DNA of 64,000 nt from NCBI GenBank assembly GCA_963662275.1, contig OY759316.1, positions 1,088,001 through 1,152,000 of the forward strand, given 5' to 3'. The notes beneath the pieces were generated by a model that saw only the letters and a list, made by a program, of their open reading frames with translations, searched no databases and was not told the DNA's origin. This document shows positions 30,467-47,500 of the stretch, one piece after another. Each line of letters opens with the position of its first letter. Within the stretch, counting starts at the first letter, position 1. A program made the position numbers and the translations under genes. Origin of the DNA: Candidatus Cloacimonadales bacterium (GTDB lineage: Bacteria > Cloacimonadota > Cloacimonadia > Cloacimonadales > DAONDQ01).

Positions 30467-33166
30467 TTGAAAAAGAACTTGCTTATTGCCATGCTTTTGA
30501 CAATTGCCACGACTATTTTGTTGGCTGCTCCAGTGTTCAATACACCTGTAGATTTGACTCAACCGGATGGAACGATACTTCATTGTTTTGCAAGTGGAGA
30601 TGAATTTCATAATTGGCTGCATGATAAAAATCAATATACAATTATACAGGATTCTCATAACGGCTGGTATACATATGCCATTCACGATGGGATGAATGTG
30701 AAATCAAGCTCATATATCGTTGGGCAAATCGATCCTCAATCGGCTGGTTTAGTTCCAAAGATTAATGTTTCTGAAGAACTTGTCAGACAGAGACGTCTTG
30801 AATTTGAACAGATGACTTCCTCTCATAGCAGAAATACACGGGCACCGCATACAGGTGTGTTAAACAACATCGTTGTTTTCATTCGTTTTGCTGATGAAAG
30901 CGAATTTTCAGAGACTATGAACGCATTTGATTATATGTTCAACTCACAAGCTGAAGATGCCAATTCGATGCATCATTACTTTGAGGTTGCCTCATATGGG
31001 CAGCTTGATATTGAGTCTCACTATTATCCTGTTTCCCCTGATTCGTTTATTGTATCCTACCAGGATTTACAGCCAAGAGGTTATTATGAGCCTTTCAGCG
31101 AGATGAATAATATCGGATATCAAGGCGGAGACAATGGAGATGAAAGAGTCACTCGAGAACATGAATTACTTTTAAGTGCCATAGATGGTATCTCCAACCA
31201 AGTACCAGCGAACTTGAATATCGATGGCGATAATGATGGCGAAGTTGATAATGTCTGCTTCCTGATAAAGGGTTCACCGAATGGGTGGTCTTCCCTCTTA
31301 TGGCCTCATCGTTGGTCATTATATTCAGTGGACGCATATATTCAGGGAAAACGAGTCATGGATTTCAATCTCCAGCTTCAATCGATGACATATAGTTCTG
31401 GTGCGGGCGTGTTAAGCCACGAAATGTTTCATTCATTAGGTTCTCCAGATCTATATCGTTATTCTGATACTTCAATTTCACCAATTGGTGGCTGGGATTT
31501 GATGTCAAATGACCATAATCCACCCCAATATATGGCAGTATATATGAAATATATGTATGGTCAATGGCTGACATCAATACCAACGATTACTACCTCTGGT
31601 ACTTATACTTTGTATCCAAATCAATCTTTAGATAATAGTATCTATCGAATACCCTCCTATAGAACTAGTGAATATTTTATTGTAGAATATCGTAAGCAGG
31701 AAGGAATGTTTGATTCCGTACCAGGTAAGGGACTAGTCGTTTATCGGGTGAATAGTCAAGAAAATGGAAATGCTTACGGTCCACCGGATGAGTTTTATAT
31801 CTTTAGACCAAACGGTACATTAACAAACTCAGGGAGCTTAGATCTTGCAGCTTTCAGTTCTCAATCAGGGAGAACCTTTATCAATGATTCTTCTAATCCG
31901 GCTGATTTCCTGTCTGATGGTCAACCGGGCGGCTTGGATATCAGTAACATCGGTATAGCAGGAGAAACGATAACTTTTGATGTCAAGCTGGCGAATCTCC
32001 AGGTGATGTCACCAAATGGAAGAGAAGTATGGTTCTATGGAACTTCCAAGACAATTCGCTGGTCTTCACTTAGTCCTACCGGCTATGTTAAAATTGAATA
32101 TTCGATTGATGACGGATTATCCTGGAATATGATTGTCCCCAGTACTTTCAATACAGGAAGTTATGTTTGGAATCAGATACCCAATCTGTATACATCCAAT
32201 TGCATTGTGCGGGTTTCTCATTTAACCAATAATTGGACTGATATCAGCAATAATTCGTTTTCCATTTTGAACAATATTCCAATACCAACACCCACTTCAC
32301 CTCAGAACCAGGCAACCAATGTCGTGACGAATCCAATGCTGACCTGGCAAACTACGATCGGAACTCTTTCGTATCAAATGCAGATTTCAACTGATGCTGA
32401 ATTTGGACAACTCATAGCCGAGCAAAGCAATATAACACACGCATATTATCAAACCCCTACCTTGAATCCATTTACCACTTATTATTGGCATGTCTGCTCG
32501 AATACGGAAGTTGGATTGGGTGAATATACAGAGACCCAAAGTTTCATAACAGGACAGGTCTCTGTTACACCTTCTGTCCCGATCATGTCTTTACCTGTCA
32601 ATTCAGCATCTGGTTTACCTGCGAATCCTGAATTTTCCTGGAACAGCAGTTTTCAAGCTGATAGTTATCAATTAGTAATTGCCAGAGATAATTATTTTAC
32701 TCAAATAGTAATCAGTCATGATAATATCACAGAGACAAGTTATCAAGTTGCTTCTTTATTACCCAATACTCATTACTACTGGAGAATTCGGGCACACAAT
32801 ATCGCAGGTTATAGTAATTTCTCAATTATCAGGAATTTCACAACAGGTAACTATACGGCGACTGATGATCAGATTAATTCGGTAATAACCAAGAATGACT
32901 TATTTCCAAATTATCCAAATCCTTTTAATCCGGAAACGACAATTGCTTTTAGTTTGCTGAATCACCAATTTGTTAAGCTTGAGGTTTTTGATATTCGGGG
33001 ACAAAAAGTAACTTCTCTAATTCAATCCTCAATGGATGCAGGGATACATAAAGTTGTCTGGAATGGGACTGATTCTTCCGGGAAGAAAACAGCTACCGGT
33101 ATTTACTACAGTAAACTTTGTATAGGAAAACAGACATTTATTAGGAAAATGCTTCTGCTGAAGTAA
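30467..33166 (+). CDS. M6 (immune inhibitor A) family secreted metalloprotease with FN3-like and FlgD-Ig/T9SS-like C-terminal domains
   Basis: QPDGT..GDEFHNW propeptide, WPHRW, HEMFHSLGSPDLY (HExxHxxGxxD), WDLM, EYFIVEYR; tail NYPNPFNPETTI..FDIRGQKV. Confidence 0.92.
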   Translation: MKKNLLIAMLLTIATTILLAAPVFNTPVDLTQPDGTILHCFASGDEFHNWLHDKNQYTIIQDSHNGWYTYAIHDGMNVKSSSYIVGQIDPQSAGLVPKINVSEELVRQRRLEFEQMTSSHSRNTRAPHTGVLNNIVVFIRFADESEFSETMNAFDYMFNSQAEDANSMHHYFEVASYGQLDIESHYYPVSPDSFIVSYQDLQPRGYYEPFSEMNNIGYQGGDNGDERVTREHELLLSAIDGISNQVPANLNIDGDNDGEVDNVCFLIKGSPNGWSSLLWPHRWSLYSVDAYIQGKRVMDFNLQLQSMTYSSGAGVLSHEMFHSLGSPDLYRYSDTSISPIGGWDLMSNDHNPPQYMAVYMKYMYGQWLTSIPTITTSGTYTLYPNQSLDNSIYRIPSYRTSEYFIVEYRKQEGMFDSVPGKGLVVYRVNSQENGNAYGPPDEFYIFRPNGTLTNSGSLDLAAFSSQSGRTFINDSSNPADFLSDGQPGGLDISNIGIAGETITFDVKLANLQVMSPNGREVWFYGTSKTIRWSSLSPTGYVKIEYSIDDGLSWNMIVPSTFNTGSYVWNQIPNLYTSNCIVRVSHLTNNWTDISNNSFSILNNIPIPTPTSPQNQATNVVTNPMLTWQTTIGTLSYQMQISTDAEFGQLIAEQSNITHAYYQTPTLNPFTTYYWHVCSNTEVGLGEYTETQSFITGQVSVTPSVPIMSLPVNSASGLPANPEFSWNSSFQADSYQLVIARDNYFTQIVISHDNITETSYQVASLLPNTHYYWRIRAHNIAGYSNFSIIRNFTTGNYTATDDQINSVITKNDLFPNYPNPFNPETTIAFSLLNHQFVKLEVFDIRGQKVTSLIQSSMDAGIHKVVWNGTDSSGKKTATGIYYSKLCIGKQTFIRKMLLLK

Positions 33167-33248
33167 GTTTGTTAGATCAGGATGTCATTCTTGCAATACT
33201 AAACGTTCAGTAGGATCGAGACCTAAGCTATATGGTGAATTGAATAGG

Positions 33249-33890
33249 CTAGACTCCACGCTTATCAGGATGCCATAGAAGCTTGTGTAATTGAATCTGC
33301 AATCTGACTGGTATCTTGTCCTGAATTATCCATTCTGCCAGCGTACTTGGCTCTAATGAGCCATGAACGCAAGAGAACAGTATCTTATGTTCCCAAAGGT
33401 GATATTTCTCCAAGAATGCTAAAGCCCATTGATAATCTTGTTTATCGGAAAGAACAAATTTAATTTCGTCATGGTCTTTATGTATCTCATGCAGATTGGA
33501 CAGTACAAAACAGTCAGAACAGCCGCTGGAAGGGCATTTGACATCCACAATGCTGGTTACATAATAAGGGACATGAGCGATATCAATTGTACCATTCGTT
33601 TCTAAGAGTATGCTGTAATCTCTGTCACGAAGATCTGAAATCAATTCATACACATCATTTTGAAGTAATGGTTCACCACCAGTAATTTCAACCAATTTGA
33701 TTGGAGCATACGAAGTGACTTCCTCAAGGATTTTATCAATTGTGTAATCTGTTCCTTCACCATAAGTATAAGTTGAATCACAGTAACTACATCGAAGATT
33801 ACAACCGCTCAATCGAATAAAGATACAAGGTAAGCCAGCATAAGTTGATTCACCTTGAATACTGAGGAAAATCTCTGTCACTGAAAGCAT
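33249..33890 (-). CDS. queE: 7-carboxy-7-deazaguanine synthase (radical SAM)
   Basis: EIFLSIQGE, FIRLSGCNLRCSYCDS, ITGGEPLLQ, LETNG, QIQLHKLLW. Confidence 0.9.
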   Translation of the reverse strand: MLSVTEIFLSIQGESTYAGLPCIFIRLSGCNLRCSYCDSTYTYGEGTDYTIDKILEEVTSYAPIKLVEITGGEPLLQNDVYELISDLRDRDYSILLETNGTIDIAHVPYYVTSIVDVKCPSSGCSDCFVLSNLHEIHKDHDEIKFVLSDKQDYQWALAFLEKYHLWEHKILFSCVHGSLEPSTLAEWIIQDKIPVRLQIQLHKLLWHPDKRGV

Positions 33891-33914
33891 AAAACGAAAT
33901 CTCGATCAAACAAA

Positions 33915-35117
33915 TCAGAATGGAAAATATGGTAAATGTTTGTGATAACCTAGTTTGGCATCAATCTGATTATTGAGTTTCATGGGATCACCGATAACGA
34001 ATTTATGGCGTTCATCAACTGTAAAATTCGAGTATTGTGCTTGATCAATGCTAAAAGAATCGAGTAATTCCGCATCCCCATAAATGGGTTTTCCCTTATA
34101 TAACATCAGCTTGATGTTCATACTTTTTACTTTTGTTAGATTCAAGTATGGATCATCATCTAAAGAATCCATGATCAGTATTGATTCTGAATGTATATGA
34201 GAACTTCTTTCACTTTCGGGTAGGAAAAGAGCTTTCTCCGCATTCACAGTTACCATTTCAAAAATCTTCATCATGGAGATATGTGGAAATTTCTGGTGAG
34301 CTGTATGGATTTCATCGAATAAATTGATGCTGCCTGATAATGAGGAATCTGTACCAAGGATAACATTCAGACCATATTCAAGACAGGTTTCAATATCTAA
34401 GGTTTTATCTAATAAGTAAAAATTAGATGATGGGCACCAGCAGAGTGTAGAACCAGCATCTGCGCATTGTCTGATCTCTTGTTTCGTGAGACTTACTCCA
34501 TGAACAATAATGGTATTGGGTTGGAGCAATCCCATCTCCATTAGTTTAGAGAATTCATTCCGGGTTACTTCATCAAATCCTTCACCTAAATGAATAATGA
34601 AAGGCTCTTTCAGCTTAGTTAACTTCCACTCTTCATTTGGAGTCAATCCTCCCCACCAATTTCCTAAAGTCAGGGAATGACATTGCCGATAATTTCGAAG
34701 TATGTTGATAGGGAAGAGGTCATAATACTTTATCGTTTGATTCGGTCCATGATCCTGGACAACAGTGCATCCTGAAAAGATGTTCTTATATGCGCCAATC
34801 AATGCCAGAAGAGGTGCTTCCCCTTTCATTAAGTCGAAACTACCATCATTTACCCATATTTTATTTCTCTCTAAAACTGACTCTGTTTGCTTCATATCTT
34901 CAACCCAGATGTGAGAATTGATATAGGGACGGTGAGTACCGGCTTTGGGATACCAATTACCGATCATATGATCATGAGAATTGATAAGAGTAGGATAGAC
35001 AATAGCGGTCTTGAAGTCAAGCTGAGAATTTGAATTTCGTCCAGTACTGATGTTAATTGTCACATTTTCTTGGATCTTTCGACCTGGATATGCCGTTTTA
35101 CCTATCGTTATCTTCAT
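33915..35117 (-). CDS. Amidohydrolase-superfamily metallo-hydrolase/deaminase
   Basis: INSHDH (HxH), IHLGEG, IVHGV, WCPSSN, LGTDS. Confidence 0.85.
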   Translation of the reverse strand: MKITIGKTAYPGRKIQENVTINISTGRNSNSQLDFKTAIVYPTLINSHDHMIGNWYPKAGTHRPYINSHIWVEDMKQTESVLERNKIWVNDGSFDLMKGEAPLLALIGAYKNIFSGCTVVQDHGPNQTIKYYDLFPINILRNYRQCHSLTLGNWWGGLTPNEEWKLTKLKEPFIIHLGEGFDEVTRNEFSKLMEMGLLQPNTIIVHGVSLTKQEIRQCADAGSTLCWCPSSNFYLLDKTLDIETCLEYGLNVILGTDSSLSGSINLFDEIHTAHQKFPHISMMKIFEMVTVNAEKALFLPESERSSHIHSESILIMDSLDDDPYLNLTKVKSMNIKLMLYKGKPIYGDAELLDSFSIDQAQYSNFTVDERHKFVIGDPMKLNNQIDAKLGYHKHLPYFPF

Positions 35118-36304
35118 GACCGAACTTCATTGATTTTTTTTGTAAGCTTAGGGACAATTTCAAACAAATCACCCACAATACCCAAATCTGCTGCTTTAAA
35201 TATCGCTGCATCAGAATCTTTATTAATGGCTATAATGTAATCAGAAGAGGACATCCCGGCAAGATGCTGAACTGCCCCGGAAATACCACAGGCGATATAA
35301 ATACGGGGTTTAACTGTTTTCCCTGTCTGTCCTACCTGGTGGCTGTAAGATATCCATTCAGAATCAACGGCTGCTCGAGATGCTCCAACAGCACCATCAA
35401 GAGCATCTGCCAGGTCTTCCAATATTTTAAAATTAGCTGCATCCTTAAGACCACGTCCTCCGGAAACAATGACATTAGCTTCAACAATATTAATCAGGCT
35501 GGTTTGTTCTTTTACGAATTCCATATACTCAGAAATCTTCCAATCTTCAGGGATATCAATAGTCTCCGTTAAGACGATACCGGAACGATCGGGATCTCTT
35601 TCCAGGGGATTCATTACTTTGTGTCGTACAGTAGCCATTTGAGGTCTGTGATTGGGAGTAATAATGGTTGCCATGATATTACCCCCGAAAGCTGGTCGAG
35701 TTTGTTGAAGATTTCTATTTTCCAAATCAATTTTCAGTCCAGTGCAGTCAGCAGTTAAACCGGTTCGCAAGTTAACGGCAACTCTCGGTATAAATGAACG
35801 CCCTGTGGCTGTAGCTCCAGCCAGGATGATCTCTGGATTAAATTTTCTGCTTAGTTCAGTCAGGATATAGGCATATCTTTCTTCTGTATAATTGAGGAGC
35901 ACCGGATCATCTACAACAATGACTTTATCAGCACCATAAGCAATTAACTCAGAACTGAGTGGTTCTACTTCAGAACCGATCAGGATTGCCGTCAGTTCGG
36001 ATTCAAGTTCATCAGCTAGTTCCCTGCCCTTTCCTAATAACTCTAAGGTGACGGGAGCAATGGTTTTATGATGTTGTTCAGCATAGACCCAAACTCCGGA
36101 ATAATCATTTTTGTTCAGGGTTGGTTTTACATTTCTCCGAATCATGATTGCTTCAAAGGGACATGCACTAACACATGCGCCACAGAGAACACATTTATCC
36201 GAATTAATTTCAGCTATTTTATTCGATATTGTTACAGAATCATAGGCACATGCTTTGCTACATAGACCGCATCCTATACATTTATCCACGATCACTTCAA
36301 TCAT
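35114..36304 (-). CDS. etfA: Electron transfer flavoprotein alpha subunit with N-terminal 2x[4Fe-4S] ferredoxin domain
   Basis: CIGCGLCSKAC and CVLCGACVSACP; TGLTADCT, RPAFGGN, VSGGRG, GASRAAVD, QVGQTGKTV, GISGAVQH. Confidence 0.93.
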   Translation of the reverse strand: MIEVIVDKCIGCGLCSKACAYDSVTISNKIAEINSDKCVLCGACVSACPFEAIMIRRNVKPTLNKNDYSGVWVYAEQHHKTIAPVTLELLGKGRELADELESELTAILIGSEVEPLSSELIAYGADKVIVVDDPVLLNYTEERYAYILTELSRKFNPEIILAGATATGRSFIPRVAVNLRTGLTADCTGLKIDLENRNLQQTRPAFGGNIMATIITPNHRPQMATVRHKVMNPLERDPDRSGIVLTETIDIPEDWKISEYMEFVKEQTSLINIVEANVIVSGGRGLKDAANFKILEDLADALDGAVGASRAAVDSEWISYSHQVGQTGKTVKPRIYIACGISGAVQHLAGMSSSDYIIAINKDSDAAIFKAADLGIVGDLFEIVPKLTKKINEVRS

Positions 36305-36384
36305 GGGAATCTCCTTGAAGAATGGTAATGATTATTGGATAGGTTAAACGTGGAATTTCGTCAAGAAATTTATTTACAGGGAAA

Positions 36385-36421
36385 ATCAAAAAAGGCTCTA
36401 ATTTCATAGAACCTTTTTGAT
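36385..36421 (-). terminator. Terminator downstream of the HU-bS22 operon
   Basis: AAAAAAGGCTCTA/TAGAACCTTTTT stem; gives a U-tract on the minus strand just after the bS22-like stop. Confidence 0.6.
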
Positions 36422-36440
36422 CTATACCATTCAAGAATTA

Positions 36441-36536
36441 TTATCTGATTCTTTTTTTATGTCTGTTCTTGCGTAGGCGTTTTTTTCTTTTGTGTGTTGC
36501 GATTTTATGTCTTTTTCTCTTTTTTCCGCAGGGCAT
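36441..36536 (-). CDS. 31-aa basic protein, AURKAIP1/COX24-domain family (ribosomal protein bS22-like)
   Basis: Not in ORF track. Manual translation: MPCGKKRKRHKIATHKRKKRLRKNRHKKRIR*, with GGAGGAG RBS immediately upstream. Confidence 0.88.
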   Translation of the reverse strand: MPCGKKRKRHKIATHKRKKRLRKNRHKKRIR

Positions 36537-36557
36537 TACTCCTCCTATGAATAGAAT

Positions 36558-36836
36558 TTATTGATCAGAGATTTCAGTTTTGAACTCTCTGGAGAACTTA
36601 AATGTGGGTACAGTTCTTTCTGGTACAGGAATCTTTTCATCAGTTTTCGGATTTCTGCCAATTCGAGGCTTTCTGACTTTCAGTTTGAAAGTTCCAAACC
36701 CGCGAATTTCAATATGATTGCCATCTTTCATACAATCCTTAATTGACTGCAAAAAAGTATCAACTACGATCGCTACATCCTTCCGAATAATGCCAGTATC
36801 TGTTGAAATGATTTTTACTAAATCGGCTTTAGTCAT
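36558..36836 (-). CDS. HU/IHF family nucleoid DNA-binding protein (IHF-beta-like)
   Basis: MTKADLV..IEIRGFGTF..RIGRNPKT..PTFKFS. Confidence 0.93.
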   Translation of the reverse strand: MTKADLVKIISTDTGIIRKDVAIVVDTFLQSIKDCMKDGNHIEIRGFGTFKLKVRKPRIGRNPKTDEKIPVPERTVPTFKFSREFKTEISDQ

Positions 36837-36951
36837 TTGGTACTCCTTATATCCATAATTTAATGAAATAACTTCCTGTATATAAAGGGTTTAAAATTGA
36901 AATACAGGGAATGTGTCAAGAGAAATATCAATTTCATTATTTTCTGCATGT

Positions 36952-36980
36952 GTAGAGACGCCCAACTTGGGCGTCTCTAC
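36952..36980. repeat. GTAG-type REP-like palindrome
   Basis: GTAGAGACGCCCA-ACT-TGGGCGTCTCTAC perfect 13-bp stem, GC-rich in an AT-rich intergenic region. Confidence 0.7.
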
Positions 36981-37124
36981 GACTCAAAAAGAAACAATTT
37001 CCGATTTATCTTCTAAAGTCAATCTCTGGAATTTACATATTATCCCTTTTCCTGATCGAGAATCGACTAAATCTTTGCCAATGGATTATTTTTTTTTGGC
37101 TTTTTGTCCTGCTTCACCTTAGGA

Positions 37125-40100
37125 TCATTTACTTTTTAAACCGAATAGTTGCCCTAACCAACAACCGCAGGCAATTCCAGATGGTTGAGTACTAGTAAGG
37201 TAGTTAAAGTAGCACTGGTTACACTTATTATCTGATGCATACGCCTTAAAGATACTTGTAATTTGTTTGATCATACGAGCTTGAAGTTTAGAAAAATCAG
37301 CATCATCATCAACACAAGATGGACTTAATGATTTTAGCAAACGATGAACATTCTGTAAGATACCTCCGATAGGTGTGATTAATTCATAAAAACAATCCAG
37401 CGCTGCCAACGGAATTCCATATTGTGTTTGTGTATGTGCAGTCCTTTGTGCTTTGAAATTCCTGATTCTATCTCTTATTTGTTCATACGCTAATTCAGGA
37501 TAATATTTATAGCTTGTATCTTTCTCGAAAACATAATTACTTAACTGGATACCAATCCCATTCAACTGAAAATTCGCTAGATCGTGATACTCGGTCATTT
37601 TAACGATAATCTCACAGGCACGGTCTTTTCGCGGACTGTTTAATGGAACACCTAAATACCAAGTGGCATATGTGAATATGTCAGGTACTTGATACTTAAT
37701 ACAAAGTTGATTCAACTGATCAGTAGATAGATTATTTGTCAGGATTTCCAGAAATTGCTGATGAGAAGCAAACCAGTTCCTTGAGACAAAGATTGGTTTA
37801 TAACCTGGAGCATCTGGGTCTGCCTCAAACAATGCTGATATGTCATCTACCTGGTATCCGATACTGGATTGTTTGGCTATTCCGATAAATTCACTCACAG
37901 CCTGTTTCATGGCTTCTCCAGGTTCGATTATGCTATATGAAAATAGCAATTCTAAAAACATTGTGAAGTAATCCTCAGTCGTAGCAGAACCAAAATGATT
38001 TACTTCAATAGTCCCTTCGTAATCCTTACGTCTGATGATCAAATTCAGTCGCGGATTGATATAGAATGGATACGCAAGAGCATGAGCTGTCCTGATATTT
38101 GTATCTGCCTGGTTGTGACTGATATCGAGTACCGGATTGAATAATAGGTCTGGTTCTATCCAGGAGAGAGGATTGGCATTTCTGTGGGCATCATCAGCCA
38201 CAAAACTCAGAGATGACGGTTTCAGAAAGTAATTAGTTTTCCCAAATCTACCTTCTTTATGATCTTTTTTTACTTGATTCAAACCCATCCATCTTTCGCT
38301 CAAAAAAACTTTGTTGTCTGTTGGGGTTGACAATTTATTCTTAGGACTCATATTGATGTAGTCTGTGATTCTGAGTAAATTTGATTTATATCTATTGATT
38401 AAGTGTCCGGGAATACAACTGATTGTCAATGCATCTTTAACACTCTCATCTTCAATAATAATCGATATATCCGTAAACGGATCACTTGCTTTTATAATCT
38501 CTACGACCGGATGTGTCATACTATAGATGATCATTTCCTTCAGATACTTATGCCATTGCTCGTGAGAATCTTTATAAGGAAGTGGAGATTTCTTATCCCT
38601 ATCATAAATGAATGACCTGGAATCGGGATATTTTTCATTCAATTTTACTTGCAGATTGGCATACATATCGAATTCAGACTGAGATTTTCCTGGGAGAAAC
38701 AGTCTAATGGGAATTAATTCCTTCAACTCATTGTGAAAACTCGAAACAAAGGCAAAAGTATCCATCAACTCAAGGAGCCCATCATGTCTTTTGTGAATGT
38801 TATAGTACATTCGGTTGTGCCAACTGGACGATGATCTCTTGATATGGAATACAGAATACCATTCTCCGCAAAAGTACTCTCTCTGGAATTCAAAGATGTT
38901 ATCAGCAATAGCATTGCTGATATCATTAATCTGATTACGTGAGCCTTTACTGATTTGATTGACTATAATTATTGTTATTCCCTTCGCCAAACCAAAATGA
39001 GTAATTGTTGTGATCAAATCCTGAGCTTCAATTTGCTTGAATATATCGATCAGATTTTCCGTATTATCTAAGACCAGCCTCCTTACTTTGATTGGTACGG
39101 TGATTTTATATGAAAAATCGAACTTTTCATATTCGATTAATTTACTCTTTGTTGCATGTTCAGTTAAATAATCCTTGCCTTGATAAATAGCTTTAGAAGG
39201 ACTGAACTTAATTGGATCATCTTTGCTATTATCGGTTTTCAAATTTGCTTTTTCCCAAAGGATTCTTGATAGTTTAATCCGACAAAATAAATCATCAAAA
39301 TTATCAGTGATTATCTCATTTATAGCAAACGATTCAAGTGCACGAATGACGTCCATGATTTGTTCGAGATAGTACTCTTCGGAAAAATTCCTGACTTCAA
39401 AATGACAGATAACATCGGAAACGTTTCCCCAAATTTCGGGTTTCTTCTCAAATGCATTTGCGGGAATTATCACTTTTCCCCAAGGTGCATCAATTACCTT
39501 ATCATACTCATTTTCCTCATAATTTTCTCCAAACTTAACGATTAAACCGATTGCCTTATCGATGGGATAAGCATTCCTCAGAACGCCTTTTTTAGTACGG
39601 ACTGCTGATACTTCCTTCATTTCTGTCCATATTTTATCTGCTTCAGTTTGTGAGTAATTAATTTCACTAATATCACCAGGTAACTCAATTGGAATTTGTA
39701 AGAAATTATCATTAGTAAAATTATCTTCTTTTATGAATACCCATTTTTCGTCTCTATACGAACTCAAAGTAAAGAACTTGGAAAATGATGATTTATGACA
39801 TCCCTTCTCGCCATTAAGTAAACTAACAGAATTCTTTAAAAAATATGGTTTCATTTCAGGTTTTTTTAGATGCGTATATTCAAAGAAATTGATGATGCCA
39901 TCAATTTTGATTCCATATTCTTTCATTTCTCTAATTGGCTGTATCTGTTTTAACTGGTTTGGTATCAATTCCATTAAGGCAGAGGCTGATGGATAAATAC
40001 CAAATGGAGCTTGACCCTTTGTCGAAAAATGGAAGGGATGTCGACCATAACACATATCCTGGAAACGGCTTTCAATTAACTCTATATACCGAAGATACTC

Positions 40101-41330
40101 ACCATTGATATTTCTTTTCTCAAAACCCATCACCACATCGCAGAAGTACTCAACCATAGTATCTTTAATGGAAGGATCTTTTTCCTGTGTTAGCAGAAGA
40201 ATAGTATTATTCTGTTTGGTTGAGTTTCTGTCGGGCATAGTATCTAGAATGGATCGAAACGCCTGTAACACCTGTCGCCATTTTGACTGCTCAACATCCA
40301 TATCCAAAACAGCATTGATTGAGTCGATCACCACAATATGCCTTTCATCTGATGATCTGCTCTTTTGAAAGGATTCCTCATGAACCTGTACTTTGTGAAG
40401 TAAGTCTGCTGCTGAACACATCGGAACAGGATGGATTGACATCACGAGTTTTTTTGTATTATTTACTTTTTTGAATAATTTCAGGCAGTCTTCTTTTTCC
40501 TCTTGGATATAAACCACTTCATCTTTACTTAGTCCTGTAGGTAAAGTTTTTTCGTCATAGATACATAGTAAATCAAAACTGGTAATACAACGCAAAATAT
40601 TAGTATATGATTGTTCAAGAATGAAATAATCGATAACAAAAGAAAGTGGTTCTGCCTTCTTATAATGTATTTTAGTTTTGCTTTTGTTAAGCATAAATCT
40701 GGGGTCATCGCAGTTTTTTAACAAAGCACATACTAAATTCACTAAAAAAGTTGTTTTTCCCGCACCTGATTCTCCATCAACGGTGATCATGGCAGTGCTC
40801 TTCTTAGGAAGTAGAAAGCCACCCATCATCAGTTGATTCAACCCGGATATTCCTGTATCATATCCGAAATAGGAACAGATGAAATCTTTCGGAATCGCTA
40901 TAAAATCCTTGATTAAGATTTCAACTGACTTTTCTTTAGTTGTTTCATCACGTTTTAAATAAATATTATAAAAGGTTCTTTCCCAGGCAATTGAAGGGTC
41001 AGATATTAGTTTCACTTCGTCCGATGATTCATCTTTTGAACTCGGATAACCATAAAAAATGTTGTCTAATAAAGCAAGCATGGCAGTATAAGGTTGTTGC
41101 ATAACATCTTCATATTTTGATTCTTCAGATCTGATCCTTTCCAGTTCTTCAATTTGCTTCTTATCAATTTTGATGGTGATCCAACCCATTTGACTTTTCT
41201 GGAGTTCCTCGATTGTGGAATTTATAGTCTCGGTTGTTGAATTTCTGCTTTTTGCATATTCATGATTAACATGTCTTTCCAAGTCTTTAAGAAAATTAAA
41301 GCTAGCCTGTGTATATTCCAATATTTTCAT
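37125..41330 (-). CDS. Large KaiC/RecA-like double ATPase-domain protein with C-terminal solute-binding-protein-like region and Cys cluster
   Basis: Domain 1: DTGISGLNQLMMGGF, GESGAGKTT (Walker A), ILEQ, IVVIDSI (Walker B), EYFCDVV, IELIESRFQ..GRHPF. Domain 2: LLNGEKGCHKS, RRLVLDN, ADNIFEF. C-terminal AYPFYINPRL, TWYLGVPLNSPRKDRACEII and CNQC..CGC. Confidence 0.75.
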   Translation of the reverse strand: MKILEYTQASFNFLKDLERHVNHEYAKSRNSTTETINSTIEELQKSQMGWITIKIDKKQIEELERIRSEESKYEDVMQQPYTAMLALLDNIFYGYPSSKDESSDEVKLISDPSIAWERTFYNIYLKRDETTKEKSVEILIKDFIAIPKDFICSYFGYDTGISGLNQLMMGGFLLPKKSTAMITVDGESGAGKTTFLVNLVCALLKNCDDPRFMLNKSKTKIHYKKAEPLSFVIDYFILEQSYTNILRCITSFDLLCIYDEKTLPTGLSKDEVVYIQEEKEDCLKLFKKVNNTKKLVMSIHPVPMCSAADLLHKVQVHEESFQKSRSSDERHIVVIDSINAVLDMDVEQSKWRQVLQAFRSILDTMPDRNSTKQNNTILLLTQEKDPSIKDTMVEYFCDVVMGFEKRNINGEYLRYIELIESRFQDMCYGRHPFHFSTKGQAPFGIYPSASALMELIPNQLKQIQPIREMKEYGIKIDGIINFFEYTHLKKPEMKPYFLKNSVSLLNGEKGCHKSSFSKFFTLSSYRDEKWVFIKEDNFTNDNFLQIPIELPGDISEINYSQTEADKIWTEMKEVSAVRTKKGVLRNAYPIDKAIGLIVKFGENYEENEYDKVIDAPWGKVIIPANAFEKKPEIWGNVSDVICHFEVRNFSEEYYLEQIMDVIRALESFAINEIITDNFDDLFCRIKLSRILWEKANLKTDNSKDDPIKFSPSKAIYQGKDYLTEHATKSKLIEYEKFDFSYKITVPIKVRRLVLDNTENLIDIFKQIEAQDLITTITHFGLAKGITIIIVNQISKGSRNQINDISNAIADNIFEFQREYFCGEWYSVFHIKRSSSSWHNRMYYNIHKRHDGLLELMDTFAFVSSFHNELKELIPIRLFLPGKSQSEFDMYANLQVKLNEKYPDSRSFIYDRDKKSPLPYKDSHEQWHKYLKEMIIYSMTHPVVEIIKASDPFTDISIIIEDESVKDALTISCIPGHLINRYKSNLLRITDYINMSPKNKLSTPTDNKVFLSERWMGLNQVKKDHKEGRFGKTNYFLKPSSLSFVADDAHRNANPLSWIEPDLLFNPVLDISHNQADTNIRTAHALAYPFYINPRLNLIIRRKDYEGTIEVNHFGSATTEDYFTMFLELLFSYSIIEPGEAMKQAVSEFIGIAKQSSIGYQVDDISALFEADPDAPGYKPIFVSRNWFASHQQFLEILTNNLSTDQLNQLCIKYQVPDIFTYATWYLGVPLNSPRKDRACEIIVKMTEYHDLANFQLNGIGIQLSNYVFEKDTSYKYYPELAYEQIRDRIRNFKAQRTAHTQTQYGIPLAALDCFYELITPIGGILQNVHRLLKSLSPSCVDDDADFSKLQARMIKQITSIFKAYASDNKCNQCYFNYLTSTQPSGIACGCWLGQLFGLKSK

Positions 41331-41338
41331 GCGTCCTC

Positions 41339-43510
41339 CTAATTTAGTGAAAGAATTTTTTGTATGTGATTTCGTACTTTGTCTACAAGATGGAAAAGAA
41401 CCTGGTTGCTGGACCCTTGAATTGAAAAGTGTTTTTTAAAATCCTCTAAACATCGGTCTATAATTAACTGAATACTCTGTGTTGCTTTACCGCCAAAATT
41501 CAATTCCAGATGTTCTAATGGATGATGATCCATGCTCTGCAGTCGGTTATAGGTGATGCATTCTATGGGTATCCACAACTGGTCAGAAGTTTTTAATTGG
41601 GTATATAGCGTCTCCAAATCGATTAAATACTTGCTAATCAAGTTAATGATGTTGGCTGAAAAAGCCTTCTGAGCCTCGTTTACGATAGAGAGAATTTGTT
41701 CCTCTCTTTCCAGGATACCTTCAAAAAGACTATCTTTGAGAAATTTGTTAAGCTTAGTGATAGGTGGATGTTTGGAAAGTAAATTCAGATACAACTGAGT
41801 AACAAATTTATCCTTAAGCTGTCTGATATATTTCTCTGGCGCAAGAGAATTTTTTAGTTCAATGATAGAGGTCTTATCTCTGAAATAGTGGGTAAGTTCA
41901 TTTTCACTAAGATTATCAATCAATTCATCCTTGAATAGTTTGAGTTGAAGATCTTTATCAAAACTCTCATATTCATGAAGCAGATCCTCAAACAACATTA
42001 GATATTCCATAAAAATACAATATGTCTGATGATTAGCACTAAATTCCTTCCAACTGGATTCAAGAATTCCGATGATTCTGGTCAGTTCATAATTCGAGAT
42101 AGGATAATTACCGATATTCCTCAATTGGGATAAGACTGGATTTAATGAAAATGTGCAGGATTCAGTGAGATTTAGATTTTGATAACGATATTCAAAAGTA
42201 TTGATTAATTCATTGATTTCTTCTTGTTTATGAGAACCGGATTTTTCTAATTTTTTGATTTGCTTAATCAGATTTTTCGTAAATGGTATTTCTAAGGTCA
42301 AATCTGCTGACAGGTCAGCTTTTCTGTATGATTGCGCTAAGCGAAGCAGCATATTTGTCCAGTTGTCTTTAAAATTGTCACTTAATGCTGTATCATTGAT
42401 TCTAAAATCGTTAAAAGCAATTGGCTTGAATTGGCAAACTAATTCCCTATTCCATACTTGCAGTTCATCAACCAGAATCAACAGATATAATAGAGGTAAT
42501 CTTATCCCAGATATCTTTTCCTTATATCCTTTACTGAAAATCCCTTCTTTAAATTTATCATAATGATGGAGAGAAGCATTACTGATTGCATCTGTAAAAT
42601 CCTTCATTTCCTGGATGATTCGGATGATACTTGCATAGGAAATAGTAGTTTCACTGCTATTTAAAAATATTCCCAGTTCGTGATAATAACCTTTTATTGC
42701 TTCTAAACCACCCAGTATATCATGAGAACCATATTCTTCGACAAAATTCTCCACAGCAATTCGTTTTATTGAATCACTTATCTGATTACTTGAGAATTTT
42801 CCAAGCCTGCCTTGGAGTCGATGGCTTATAATATCAAGCGCATTATCATGGAGTAAATAAGGAGGGACAAATCCTGTTGTGAGGGAATTTTCAATTTCGG
42901 CTATTCCTGAAATATTGATAATATCCTCGAAATGTGGGATTGTCACAGAAAAAACCTGATTTGTTGTATGAAAATGGTGCTTAGCTTCCATATTCATGGC
43001 GTTATAGCTAATTTGTGGAAGATAGGCGATATCATGGAAAAATGCAGTGATAGCCCAACGTCTATGGAATCTTTCATAATCTGGGTGATGAGATAAAGGC
43101 AGGACTTCCGAGGATGGACTCATATATATATTATCGAGCTTTTCAAAATCGATATTCGCAAGCAGCATATTCCCCAGAAAATCATCTTTCATCAAGTACA
43201 AACCCATCAGATAATTATAAACAGAATGTAGATAATGTGATCGATAATCTTTAGTAATCCACGGGAATCCATAATCAACTTTTAAAAGTGAAGTAATATA
43301 CCCTTGCAGGATTCTTTCGATACAATGCGTTTCAAATCCAAGATTACGTATCGTTTGAATCATTAATCTCTGGGCAATATCAGTTTTTTCTTCATTATCA
43401 TTGGATGATAGAAATTGATTAATTAAATGAACATTGTTCACAGGAATGATTCGATCGGATGATTTCACAAAAAAATCTAATAACACTGAATCTATCAAAG
43501 TATCCGGCAT
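41339..43510 (-). CDS. HD-superfamily metal-dependent phosphohydrolase (HD-CE-like) with helical C-terminal half
   Basis: YRSHYLHSVYNYLMG, WAITAFFHDIAY (HD), SHDILG, ASLHH, PLLYLLILVDELQVWNR match the H..HD..H..HH..D metal-ligand order. Confidence 0.75.
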   Translation of the reverse strand: MPDTLIDSVLLDFFVKSSDRIIPVNNVHLINQFLSSNDNEEKTDIAQRLMIQTIRNLGFETHCIERILQGYITSLLKVDYGFPWITKDYRSHYLHSVYNYLMGLYLMKDDFLGNMLLANIDFEKLDNIYMSPSSEVLPLSHHPDYERFHRRWAITAFFHDIAYLPQISYNAMNMEAKHHFHTTNQVFSVTIPHFEDIINISGIAEIENSLTTGFVPPYLLHDNALDIISHRLQGRLGKFSSNQISDSIKRIAVENFVEEYGSHDILGGLEAIKGYYHELGIFLNSSETTISYASIIRIIQEMKDFTDAISNASLHHYDKFKEGIFSKGYKEKISGIRLPLLYLLILVDELQVWNRELVCQFKPIAFNDFRINDTALSDNFKDNWTNMLLRLAQSYRKADLSADLTLEIPFTKNLIKQIKKLEKSGSHKQEEINELINTFEYRYQNLNLTESCTFSLNPVLSQLRNIGNYPISNYELTRIIGILESSWKEFSANHQTYCIFMEYLMLFEDLLHEYESFDKDLQLKLFKDELIDNLSENELTHYFRDKTSIIELKNSLAPEKYIRQLKDKFVTQLYLNLLSKHPPITKLNKFLKDSLFEGILEREEQILSIVNEAQKAFSANIINLISKYLIDLETLYTQLKTSDQLWIPIECITYNRLQSMDHHPLEHLELNFGGKATQSIQLIIDRCLEDFKKHFSIQGSSNQVLFHLVDKVRNHIQKILSLN

Positions 43511-43657
43511 TTACCCATCCTTTTAAATTCCCTTATGTATCTTTGAATTCCCAATAGTTTATTACTATGTCTGAATCGTTATATGTTATTTTATTTGTCA
43601 ATAATTAATTTCAAACATTCATTTATTCCTGTATTATAACATAATCAGCCAACCTCT

Positions 43658-43751
43658 TCATCTTTGAACTTCTCTCAGGACTTTCTCATCTTTAAACTTC
43701 TCTCAGGACTCCCTCAGACAACTCTTAAATAACTCTTAAGACCTGAGAGAA
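43658..43751. repeat. Direct plus inverted repeat cluster in the divergent promoter region
   Basis: TCATCTTT[G/A]AACTTCTCTCAGGACT at 43658 and 43686 (28-bp period); AACTCTTAA at 43720 and 43731; CCTGAGAGAA (43742-51) is the reverse complement of TTCTCTCAGG. Confidence 0.75.
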
Positions 43752-44503
43752 AAATGAGTATTGGTTGAGAGTTTGCTAACTTTGAAGTGAGTGTAATTTT
43801 CTTGACTAGTAAATCATGAAAATATATGAATTTATATTGTAACTCCTTGTTTTATCTAAATACTGGAAATTCTTTCTTGCTTAAATTTTGCATTGACTTA
43901 GACTATTAGATATTACTCAGGAGAAATTATTGAAAATAACTTCTAATTATTCTCCTTTTCTAGTCTTTTTTTCACTGTTGATAATCCGACATACTTGAGT
44001 ACAGTACAAGGTATGAATGAATTAGAAGTGAGTAGAAAAGGGAATGGGAAAGAAAAGAAAATGAGAATACTGAGATCAAAGTCAGTATTTTTTAAATTGA
44101 ACATAATATGAAGCAGATGAGATGTATATATTTTATAAAAAGCGAAGTTTTAACTGTTTATCCGATTGTTGACTGGCACAACCTAGAGAATATTTTGGAG
44201 ATAAACTATTGAAAAGAAGGAAAAGACAAAACAAGGATAATTCTGATTGTACTATAATTTAAATCACAAAATAGAGGATTTTCCTAATTTATAAGTAGTC
44301 CCAAATGAAAAAAACATTGACAAATGGATATGGAATAAACAAAGATGATATAATAAGAGTGGTAGAATAATAAGTAATTTTCCAATCGGGTAGGCGCTGA
44401 TAAAATATATATGCGTCAATTATATTGGAGTATCATATAAATCTATCATTAACTAATAATTAATTATACAAAAAGAATAAGCGTATTTACAGGAGTGTGA
44501 TTT

Positions 44504-47500
44504 ATGAAACGGATATTTTATGTTATCTTAATGGTAATTATCAGCTTGTCCATCTTAAATGCAGCGCCGACAGACTGGCTCAAACTTTCTGGCTCTGCTA
44601 TTACCCCCCAGGTAATTCAAGATATACAAAATAGTAACCGAGATGTCCGTGGACCCTCTTTTAATTTTACTTCTCCTTATAACTTACCAACAACGGCGGA
44701 AATAGCTGTCAGTAATCTATTTCTGGAGGATACATCCTGGACAAAAGATTTTACTACCCTTGTTATTCCTGCCGGTGGAACTTACTATCTTTATTACAGT
44801 AATCCAGAACACTTTACCATAACACAGGATCTCGTGAATCCTCTCATCTTGACATTTGCCCCCAAACCTTTGAACTGGAATGGCTCAGAAATGGTTATTC
44901 TGACTGTATCTGATGTACCCCTAGGCAGAGAAAGCAGAGCCTATTCAACAGCTATAATTAGGTTGAATGTTACACCTGTTCCGGATCCACCGATTTTGAA
45001 CTTTCCTCTAATATTTCCTCCCGAATTCTTAGAAGATACCACATTAACTGTGAATTTTGCAGATTATGTTCAGTGCGTTGATAGTGCTCCCAATAACTTT
45101 GATTTATATCTTTCGCAAACTCAACTTCCACCTTACAATGTCGAAATATCCCAAGTACCTGCTAATATTGGTCAAATTGTAACATTTACACCAAAACATG
45201 ATTTCAATGGTGAAGTGAATTTTGTATTAACAGCAGTTGATAGAACAACGAGTGCCCTCGTTTCAACAACTATAACTGTGGATGTACAGGCTGTAAATGA
45301 TGCACCAGTAATCGATAGTTTTATCCCTATACTCACAAACCAGAATATTGAGCAATACAGTACATTGAATTTTTCTATTGTAGCACATGATGTGGATTTG
45401 ACACCGCTTGATTATTCATGGACTGTTTCAGGTACTCATAACGGAGTTCCCTTTTCCGATGTTTTTTCGACTCTTTCCACCGGTGCTTATACTTTCAATT
45501 TTCCGGGACTGTATACGGTAGAGGTCGATGTAAATGATGGGGTGAATCATGTTCACCAGACTTGGAATGTGACTGTTGCACCGACAGGTCCTATCTTTAA
45601 TCCTTGGGGTGGAGTATATTTGCATCCAGTTTCAGTGACTCTTACTCCTCCTGCAGAATATCCGACTGCTCCCATTTATTACACCATAAATGGGACACTA
45701 CCGGATAACACGTCGTTGCTTTTTAATCCAGCCAATCCCATATTGATTTCTGCCGGATTGAATAATGACAACATCGTGACTGTGAAAGCAATCTATTATG
45801 AAACTGGATTGCCCCCATCTAGTATCATAACGCAGAATTACCAAATCACAGGTACTGTACATGCCCCTGTGTTTTCTCCAGATCCTGCGGTTTATTATCC
45901 TAATGCCCAACAGGTTCATATTTCCACACCGACTATCGGTGCTTCCATTTATTATACAATAGATGGAACTGATCCTGTTGTCGGTGCGCCTAATACTTTC
46001 CTGTATTCAGATTTAACTCCGATTGATGTTCCCTTGAACACCACGAAAGTCATAAAGGCAATTGCCATGAAAACAGATTGGCAAGCTAGTAGTATTGTCA
46101 CAGCTACCTATAATGTTACGGGAACAGTTGTGATCAGTCATTATGAATTTAATCCCTCTCCAGGTCATTACGATGTTCCACTCGGTGATGTTTTAGATGT
46201 CAATATCAATAATATTGTATTAGCTCCAATGGATGCAGTTCTACATTATACTATTGATAACAGCATACCTACAACAAGCTCTCCAGTTTATAACGCAGGT
46301 CATACTTTTATTTTTAGTACACCGACAACAATCAGAATACGAGCATTTAAAACAAACTGGCAGCCCAGTGATATTATCAGCGTCGAATACGATATAGCTG
46401 GACAGGTAGTCATCGATCGTTATCCTGATCCAAATAATACAGTATTTAATCCTGCACCAGGGATCTTCTCTACTTCTCAAAATGTGACGATCAATAGCAC
46501 AATACCACCAGGCGGTTCGATCTATTACTCACTTGATGGGTCAGATCCAGTCGTTGGTGGTCTCACAACCTTCCAATACTTTGGACCAGTTCTCATAACT
46601 TCATCCAAGATAATTAAAGCCATAGCTACCTATTCAGGGTTAAGACAAAGTCCTGTTTATCAAGGTGGATATACGATAACTGGTACTGTGGCAACACCTG
46701 CCTTCATGCCTCCTGCTGGCGTATATCCTTCCTCCCAGGAAGTTGAAATTAGCTGCGCTACTCCAGGAGCTAGCATTTATTATACACTTGAAAATAATCT
46801 TATTGGGAGTGAACCTGTCATTGGTGCTGCTAATACTTTCCTTTATACTGCTCCATTTACAGTAACTGTTCCAGTTGGATATTCGACTTTGAAAGCCAGG
46901 GCTTTTTTGAATACCTGGGAACCTAGTGCAATAACGACTGGTATATATAGTATAGCAAGGCTCCCGATGCCATCTTTCAATCTTGTGTCAGGAACTTACC
47001 CCGTATCACAGACTATCCATATAACTGATGTTTCGGAGAGAGCTGCTAAAATCTATTATACTCTGGATGGTACTGATCCTACAGAAGATTCTAATTTGTA
47101 TAATGATATTTCTCCCATAGTCTTAGCTGAGAATACAACAACCATCATTCGAGCTCGAGCTTTTAAAGCTGGTTGGAATCCCAGTGATGTAGCAGCACGC
47201 ACATATACGATCACAGGTACCGTTAGTGATCCTCAATTTGCTCCCCCATCAGGTACTTATCCTCTTCCAACAGATGTATCAATTTTCTCTACAACTCCCG
47301 GTAGTACGATTAGATATACAACTAACGGAGTTGTTCCTACACCTACCTTTGGAACAGTTTATAGTGATCCTATCCATGTTTCTTCAGGATTGACAATCAA
47401 AGCTATAGCATATCAGGCAGATTGGAATAATTCCAATGTTACAGAGGCAACATATATCATTTCAGGTATTGTTGGAAATCCTGTTTTTACTCCACCTGCA

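Follow-up and report, generated by a model that had tools for sequence, protein, structure and literature searches.

A translationally coupled gene pair encoding a divergent HD-superfamily protein and a double KaiC-like ATPase in Candidatus Cloacimonadales, with a possible role as a conflict module

Within a stretch of 64,000 nucleotides (nt) from a Candidatus Cloacimonadales bacterium (assembly GCA_963662275.1, contig OY759316.1, positions 1,088,001 to 1,152,000 of the forward strand; hereafter the window) two large genes form a translationally coupled two-gene operon. Gene 1 encodes a divergent enzyme of the HD superfamily (P0001) and gene 2 encodes an ATPase with two KaiC-like domains followed by a long C-terminal extension (P0002). 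The role ranked first for the pair is that of a conflict module, directed against phages or other mobile elements, in which the two products would act together, the ATPase sensing a trigger and licensing the HD enzyme. This assignment is a tentative one and falls somewhat short of an even chance. The source genome is complete and consists of a single contig of 4.38 Mb. Coordinates of features are positions in the window.

The gene pair and its junction

41339..43510, minus strand: gene 1, encoding P0001, a divergent HD-superfamily protein of 723 amino acids (aa), starting with ATG (open reading frame (ORF) list and translation)
37125..41330, minus strand: gene 2, encoding P0002, a double KaiC-like ATPase of 1401 aa with a C-terminal extension, starting with ATG (ORF list, Pfam, NCBIfam and PDB profile)
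41335..41340, minus strand: AGGAGG ribosome-binding site, overlapping the TAG stop codon of gene 1 and lying 4 nt before the ATG of gene 2 (sequence read)

The two genes are separated by an intergenic gap of 8 nt, the stop codon of gene 1 occupying 41341-41339 and the start codon of gene 2 lying at 41330. Other ORFs of at least 80 aa within the region are limited to frames of 87 and 102 aa on the opposite strand. A first-pass annotation, made from the letters of the DNA and a list of ORFs, had described two large co-oriented genes 8 bp apart with AGGAGG at their junction, forming a self-contained unit between an HU gene and a giant surface-protein gene, and the ORF list, the junction sequence and the flanks all agree with this description. 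It had also read both proteins as free of transmembrane helices. The highest Kyte-Doolittle mean over 19 residues is 1.33 for P0001 and 1.72 for P0002, the peak in P0002 sits on a core strand of the ATPase, and no membrane-like segment is present in either protein.

Conserved linkage and a second copy

A second copy of both genes is present in the same genome at 2.606-2.612 Mb. The two proteins are 68% and 65% identical to P0001 and P0002, respectively, and their ORFs (626 and 1432 aa) are intact and separated by a 15-nt gap. Both genes are under purifying selection, the ratio of non-synonymous to synonymous substitution rates (dN/dS) between the genomic copies being 0.12 and 0.08 with dS saturated.

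Scanning with the gene 2 family gave two loci in 185,579 species genomes and four loci in metagenome contigs. At all of these, and at the second copy, a gene 1 homologue lies directly upstream on the same strand. Similarly, when the gene 1 family was searched for in 232 phylum genomes, five places in four genomes were found, each with a gene 2 homologue just downstream. When identical loci are merged (L007 = L010 = L013, L008 = L015 and L011 = L012) seven non-redundant loci are left. In every one of the seven the two genes lie side by side in the same orientation, with a spacing that ranges from an overlap of 19 nt to a gap of 15 nt. This adjacency, together with the intact second copy under low dN/dS, places the pairing beyond chance. 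The linkage of the homologues that had been expected from the window alone is thus met with at every homologous locus found. The contig records by themselves fit a possible eighth pair, since a gene 2 homologue (P0004, 1690 aa) and a gene 1 homologue (P0014, 689 aa) are recorded on one ENA contig of 9317 bp. No third conserved gene accompanies the pair in the window, at the second copy or at the other loci examined.

The linkage of HD and KaiC proteins appears to be specific to the close family, because in genome G219, also of this class, a more distant HD relative has no gene 2-like neighbour, none of 10 tested ORFs matching the gene 2 family profile. This relative (L031, G219:C25, 8712-16440) is a protein of 649 aa with an N-terminal extension, encoded in a tightly overlapping six-gene operon on the minus strand. 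By eye, the operon also includes a gene resembling a double ATP-binding cassette (ABC) ATPase and genes for membrane proteins.

Gene 1 encodes a divergent HD enzyme

42431..43510, minus strand: HD catalytic domain, residues 1-360, with H92/H95, H159-D160, H263, H315 and D348 (conservation, AlphaFold and VIA-align)
41339..42430, minus strand: family-specific, fast-evolving C-terminal half, residues 361-723 (identity comparison and model confidence)

P0001 matches no model in Pfam, NCBIfam or PADLOC, and no HD match is obtained from Pfam or NCBIfam even at E <= 1. A sequence search of the PDB with the gene 1 family profile gave nothing relevant, and a word-based search of 5.8 billion proteins retrieves only P0001 itself and one paralogue. 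The assignment is instead built from three lines of evidence. The first is a transitive link through hidden Markov models (HMMs). In an exhaustive search with HMMER a profile of four family sequences gave 291 proteins at E <= 0.001, 12 of which are found at E <= 1e-30. The strong matches are full-length relatives of 518-689 aa. The weak matches align only at profile positions ~70-350, where they share the consensus RDHxxHS ... LFHDIGYP ... DHGxxSA ... LHN ... CDELQEWxR. Among 80 remote relatives that were scanned, Pfam HD (PF01966) is found in seven (best 3.7e-11) and HDIG in four, and two match the PADLOC Cas3 model (up to 3.6e-07).

The second line is the set of metal ligands. In an alignment of 60 sequences the conservation of H95, H159-D160, H263, H315 and D348 is 90% or more, and the first five of these ligands (H95 to H315) are invariant in the four-sequence family alignment. 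The H..HD..H..H..D pattern is typical of two-metal phosphodiesterases and nucleases and not of simple monoesterases.

The third line is the predicted fold. An AlphaFold model built from the 60-sequence alignment has a predicted local distance difference test score (pLDDT) of ~85-98 over residues 10-350. Foldseek gave no match for the HD model in the PDB at E <= 0.001. Using VIA-align, where all Z-scores obtained lie below the caution line of the tool for helical folds (~13), the best row is the exoribonuclease YhaM (9h3f; Z 10.7, root mean square deviation 3.4, 161 residues aligned). This is followed by class-I cyclic-nucleotide phosphodiesterases (PDEs) at Z ~8-9 with ~200 residues aligned (PDE9A, Z 9.0, 198 aligned), and further rows at Z 5.7-7 comprise HD-GYP, PgpH, YqeK, PhnZ, SAMHD1, the Rel hydrolase domain and the HD domain of Cas3 (Z 5.8-5.9). 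As the Z-scores are below the caution line, the fold counts only jointly with the motif and the transitive HMM link. Taken together the three make the identification of P0001 as a divergent HD-superfamily enzyme sound. The full set of HD ligands noticed at first pass is therefore borne out, but profile and structural evidence were needed to establish it.

The C-terminal half of P0001 is fast-evolving. Identity to non-paralogous family members is 12-18% over residues 361-723, compared with 24-32% for the HD domain. The paralogue of the second copy lacks residues ~514-610, and the pLDDT of the P0001 model falls below 50 from residue 587. An ESM Atlas search with residues 361-723 scored 0.77, which is under the level of a lead.

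In a separate observation, RyR domains are found in 16 of the 80 remote HD-clade relatives (P0020-P0100; best 6.6e-37). A KaiC domain was seen in none of these 80.

Gene 2 encodes a double KaiC-like ATPase with a C-terminal extension

40881..41330, minus strand: N-terminal region, residues 1-150, variable and matching no family (22-31% identity to non-paralogous relatives)
39921..40880, minus strand: KaiC-like domain I, residues ~151-470 (Pfam KaiC and AAA_25; KaiC CI at profile positions 335-445)
38727..39920, minus strand: KaiC-like domain II, residues ~471-868, with long insertions (KaiC CII at profile positions 745-846)
37341..38726, minus strand: C-terminal domain, residues 869-1330, possibly with a MalE-like solute-binding-protein fold (a lead only)
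37125..37340, minus strand: C-terminal tail with a conserved Cys cluster, C1370-x2-C1373 and a later Cys (alignment)

P0002 matches the Pfam KaiC family (PF06745) in three stretches with an E-value of 1.2e-15 (57.9 bits against a cut-off of 26.6), and its paralogue at the second copy scores 47 bits. When a five-sequence profile of the gene 2 family is compared with the PDB, both halves match KaiC chains (best 2e-07). RadA is also matched in this search, at 0.009-0.01.

Domain I carries a Walker A motif GESGAGKT (residues 186-193), E239-Q240, the Walker B residue D336, and R422, all of which are invariant in six family members. E239-Q240 aligns with the catalytic Glu pair of KaiC, and R422 lies in an ESRFQ segment that corresponds to the Arg-finger segment of KaiC. 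Domain II retains K513, E602, D755 and R832 as invariant columns in the six members. Its P-loop reads G507-x2-G510-C-[H/N]-K513-S in the six sequences, so that His or Asn replaces the last glycine. As this P-loop is non-canonical the handling of nucleotide by domain II is uncertain.

The KaiC phosphorylation sites S431 and T432 align to N806 and A807 of domain II in the PDB profile alignment, and P0002 scores 41 bits against the cut-off of 408 for the NCBIfam equivalog of circadian KaiC (NF006799). On the basis of this score and the missing phosphorylation sites P0002 is taken as an ATPase of the KaiC clade and not a clock protein. No member of the KaiA or KaiB families is found among the neighbours of the pair in the window and at the other loci, the rest of the genome not having been searched for kaiB. 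The two RecA/KaiC-type domains described in the first-pass annotation are both recovered, while the KaiC label has to be qualified in view of N806/A807 and the unusual second P-loop.

The C-terminal domain had likewise been described as a binding-protein-like region, and this is recovered only as a lead. An ESM Atlas search with the region points to SBP_bac_8/SBP_bac_1 clusters (score 0.94, with only ~108 shared features). An AlphaFold model of the domain, built from seven sequences, has a pLDDT of 43.6, and on comparing this low-confidence model by VIA-align nearly all of the 50 rows are solute-binding proteins of ABC transporters or maltose-binding-protein fusions (Z 6.4-8.4). The two sources are consistent with a domain that may resemble a solute-binding protein. 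At the level of sequence, Pfam at E <= 10 with five C-terminal pieces and the full-length homologue P0004 gave noise and neither PF01547 nor PF13416, and a profile search of the domain against the PDB returned solely KaiC matches, which came from full-length rows. In the tail C1370 and C1373 are invariant in six sequences, as is C1313, which lies upstream of it. DNA-binding domains were not detected in the Pfam and NCBIfam scans.

Distribution of the pair

The pair is found in 4 of the 232 genomes of the phylum (3 of 66 genera) and in 2 of 151 high-quality genomes. The family as a whole is rare: its sequences fall into about a dozen clusters in a set of 1.84 billion representative proteins, and in public records its members are named 'hypothetical protein', 'ATPase domain-containing protein' or not at all. 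The relatives that carry the pair are labelled Candidatus Cloacimonadota, Cloacimonetes or Syntrophosphaera, and those that are ranked belong to the same order. Two further gene 2 relatives are labelled Acidobacteria and Candidatus Aminicenantes. The patchy distribution that had been anticipated is thus observed, with two phyla represented.

The only other genome of the same genus, which is 99% complete, lacks the pair. One of its contigs is collinear with the window over 30519-36927, that is through the HU gene, and carries different genes beyond this point. The site after the HU gene seems to be a variable spot. The genes that follow HU on this contig (L019, G100:C111, 7299-9888) encode, as judged by eye, a macro-domain-like protein (170 aa), a protein of 213 aa and a metallophosphoesterase-like protein (>437 aa).

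A possible conflict module

In the mechanism proposed the two genes would constitute a single accessory operon that has spread horizontally and whose products act together. P0002 would be a cytoplasmic KaiC/RecA-type ATPase, probably assembled as a double-ring hexamer like other tandem KaiC proteins. Its input modules would be the variable N-terminus, the probable solute-binding-fold C-terminal domain and the tail with its Cys cluster. P0001 would be the output, an HD enzyme with the pattern of two-metal phosphodiesterases and nucleases. On sensing a trigger the ATPase would use ATP to license the HD enzyme, which would then cut nucleic acid or a nucleotide. Activity is predicted to be retained in domain I and in the HD enzyme, as judged from the conserved catalytic residues and low dN/dS. 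The hexamer, any contact made by the two proteins, which of them controls the other, what the HD enzyme acts on and what the pair does biologically are inferred. A complex prediction for one choice of domains, residues 1-470 of gene 2 and 1-520 of gene 1, scored 0.01 against a mark of 0.32, a score from which the tool drew no verdict.

An accessory and mobile character of the pair is suggested by its patchy, cross-phylum occurrence, the two diverged copies in one genome and the break in synteny after the HU gene. A conflict role is ranked first on the grounds of this rarity, patchiness and spread across phyla, the two diverged copies, the layout of a motor beside an HD protein, and the fast-evolving parts. 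The latter, residues 361-723 of P0001 and the N-terminal region of P0002, can be likened to the sensors of conflict systems. A more specific claim is held more tentatively still. This is that the pair represents a new immune or conflict class in which a KaiC double-ring ATPase with an internal solute-binding-fold sensor drives a two-metal HD nuclease or phosphodiesterase, and in which, for the first time in bacteria, a motor of the KaiC clade would have a defined effector partner.

A number of results weigh against a conflict role. The context statistics are thin, with only seven loci, several of which come from related organisms. A search of PADLOC-DB 2.0.0 with P0001, P0002 and seven further family members gave no real match, the P-loop accounting for a cross-match to mad8 (P0002, 0.0019; P0004, 2.9e-05). 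The defence-island context suggested at first pass was not found either, since among 31 neighbour proteins from six loci, a small sample in which several contigs are short, known defence genes are absent and the PADLOC matches are all generic cross-matches (radical SAM to pVip, IstB to DrmD, ABC transporters to mad3/mad8 and a deoxynucleoside kinase to VakA). No homologue was seen in phage records, plasmids or viral contigs, where gene 1 was compared by tblastn with plasmids and phages, the C-terminal domain of gene 2 was compared in the same way with plasmids, and the viral contigs were scanned with the gene 2 family. Within gene 2 the C-terminal domain shows 31-37% identity and is no more variable than the ATPase core. 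Finally, besides the structural Z-scores being below the caution line, the HD model matches cyclic-nucleotide PDEs nearly as well as nucleases, and on this evidence a role in signalling fits equally well.

Such a role would be in cytoplasmic small-molecule signalling. The C-terminal domain would bind a metabolite or nucleotide, the KaiC-like rings would turn its occupancy into a state that depends on ATP, the HD enzyme would degrade a second messenger (c-di-GMP, c-di-AMP, (p)ppGpp or similar), and the two copies in the genome would sense different ligands. KaiC-like ATPases were reportedly proposed as signalling hubs by Makarova and co-authors in 2017, which is counted in its favour. Cyclic-nucleotide PDEs make up the majority of the top structural matches for the HD domain, with HD-GYP and PgpH following at Z 5.8-7, and the two weak sources that connect the C-terminal domain with solute-binding proteins would agree with a ligand sensor, as would the conservation of this domain, which is not hypervariable. 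The lack of defence or mobile-element context in the searches made also favours it, and regulator genes are present near the pair in two loci, a response-regulator gene lying directly upstream of the pair in one and a divergent TetR gene at the second copy. However, a cyclase or synthase for a messenger is present in none of the neighbourhoods examined, the module is extremely rare and patchy and occurs in two phyla, gene 1 changes very rapidly over its C-terminal half, and the solute-binding fold rests on a model of pLDDT 43.6 with no support from sequence. Signalling is ranked close behind the conflict role and is the strongest of the alternatives.

It is improbable that the pair forms a machine for nucleic-acid processing or repair of the HerA-NurA or RadA/Sms type, in which a RecA-superfamily ring would feed DNA or RNA to an HD nuclease. 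The match of the gene 2 family profile to RadA in the PDB speaks for it, but the match to KaiC is far stronger. YhaM, the best structural match of the HD domain, is an exoribonuclease, and the terminal Cys cluster of gene 2 can be set beside the zinc finger that RadA/Sms carries; recA and recX lie 5 kb from the pair in one locus. Against this, such a machine is expected to be widespread and vertically inherited, yet 228 of the 232 genomes of the phylum are without the pair, and the Pfam and NCBIfam scans gave no DNA-binding domain.

Flanking sequences and neighbouring genes

36558-36836, minus strand: HU gene, downstream of gene 2 (Bac_DNA_binding 4.7e-30)
~36952-36980, minus strand: 13-bp perfect GC-rich hairpin between gene 2 and the HU gene (minimum free energy -27.8 kcal/mol, z -4.98)
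43658..43751, no strand assigned: two tandem 28-nt repeats (D1, 89% identity) and an inverted 14-nt partial copy (I2, 93% complementarity), 150-240 nt upstream of gene 1

The neighbours of the pair are housekeeping or surface-protein genes. Downstream of gene 2 the hairpin at 36952-36980 is possibly the end of the operon; it has no U-tract, and a scan for consensus terminators made no call there. On the upstream side of gene 1 an intergenic region of 993 nt separates the pair from a divergent giant gene that starts at 44504. The repeats within this region are a candidate operator or possible binding site for a regulator, as read from their arrangement. Rfam matches are absent over 36300-44600 and tRNA genes are absent from both the window and the paralogous locus. 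Sigma-70 promoter-like sites are not above chance (41 compared with 36.5 in shuffled sequence).

Beyond the HU gene, a minus-strand cluster at 33249-36304 encodes a small radical-SAM protein (213 aa; weak cross-match to pVip, 2.6e-08), an amidohydrolase, and an electron transfer flavoprotein alpha subunit fused to a 2x[4Fe-4S] ferredoxin. This cluster is kept in the same-genus genome. At the second copy an IS21-type element, consisting of an IstB-like ATPase and a transposase with a Mu-transposase C-terminal domain, is located ~3 kb downstream of the pair (L006, 17456-19785; ~2.6155-2.6178 Mb).

The giant gene extends from 44504 to 64000 and past the end of the window as an open frame of 6829 aa with a signal-like N-terminus and a PKD domain. 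The first 2000 aa of its product contain at least 19 CHB_HEX_C_1/Fn3_assoc repeats. Homologues of the first 400 aa occur in 45 of the 232 phylum genomes, in frames of up to ~5000 aa, compared with 4 of 232 for the pair, and the giant neighbour is for this reason not regarded as a dedicated partner. That the pair regulates or serves neighbouring surface proteins of the type IX secretion system (T9SS), such as this giant adhesin, is highly improbable: a protein with a T9SS sorting domain or FlgD_ig adjoins or lies near the pair in the window and at L006, L007, L008 and L011, but this adjacency is weak evidence because T9SS cargo genes are extremely common in the genome (at least 150 scored Por_Secre_tail matches from 278 candidates), and the distribution of the giant N-terminus differs from that of the pair. 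Two other carriers have the giant gene and the pair on different contigs, and a link to this gene or to T9SS cargo was rejected. The T9SS cargo of the genome includes tandem arrays of paralogues of ~550 aa, for example at ~2.536-2.552 Mb and 3.687-3.702 Mb.

Comparison with known systems

The component superfamilies of the pair are known (HD, KaiC/RecA and possibly type-II binding proteins), and their combination matches no PADLOC model. The pairing had not been recognised as a named system at first pass, and this stands, as full-text searches of the literature gave no description of a KaiC-like and HD pair either; the supplements of Makarova et al. 2017 may list related neighbourhoods.

ATPases of the KaiC type are common outside cyanobacteria, and a partner or output is known for almost none of them. 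A fixed HD output and a probable built-in ligand-binding domain would make the input-motor-output logic of a non-clock KaiC protein testable with two proteins. If the conflict role is correct, the pair would add a new class of motor to the immune repertoire, from a little-studied phylum of anaerobic digesters and sediments. If signalling is correct, a transporter-type binding fold would be put to an unusual use in the cytoplasm. The extreme rarity of the family limits its general importance.

P0002 resembles cyanobacterial KaiC (8zn5, 7s65, 1tf7) in its tandem RecA-like domains and, in domain I, in the Walker A and B motifs, the catalytic Glu and the R-G/F-x Arg-finger segment. In contrast to KaiC, P0002 is 1401 aa long instead of ~520, with insertions in domain II, an additional N-terminus of 150 aa and a C-terminal extension of 530 aa. 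It also differs in having N806/A807 at the positions of S431/T432 and H or N in the second P-loop, and there is no kaiA or kaiB among the neighbours.

In work attributed to Makarova, Galperin and Koonin from 2017, archaeal and bacterial KaiC-like hub ATPases are said to have variable input and output partners and to be mostly single-domain and archaeal. The likeness to such 'signalling hub' ATPases lies in a non-circadian KaiC protein with partners, whereas the family described here is bacterial, tandem and three times larger.

P0001 shares with the HD superfamily (YhaM 9h3f, class-I PDEs, HD-GYP 4mcw, PgpH 4s1b and Cas3-HD 8wth) the order of the H..HD..H..H..D ligands and a helical fold over residues 22-361. 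It differs in that it matches no HD model itself and has an extra variable C-terminal half of 360 residues.

The structural neighbours of the C-terminal model of P0002 (pLDDT 43.6) are MalE-like solute-binding proteins (7c0f, 3oo6, 6dtq), with ~190-220 residues aligned at Z 6.4-8.4. Unlike these proteins the gene 2 domain is cytoplasmic and fused to an ATPase, has no signal peptide and shows no match at the sequence level.

Defence systems that pair an ATPase ring or motor with an effector include HerA-NurA-like pairs, SIR2-HerA, DUF4297-HerA and Cas3, which combines an HD domain with a motor. The pair differs from these in that its motor is of the KaiC clade and not HerA/FtsK or superfamily 2 (SF2), in the absence of a PADLOC match and of a defence island, and in the nuclease role being putative. 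By analogy it may nevertheless share their organization, in which the gene for a P-loop motor is translationally coupled to that for a nuclease-type effector and the two have the patchy distribution of an accessory system.

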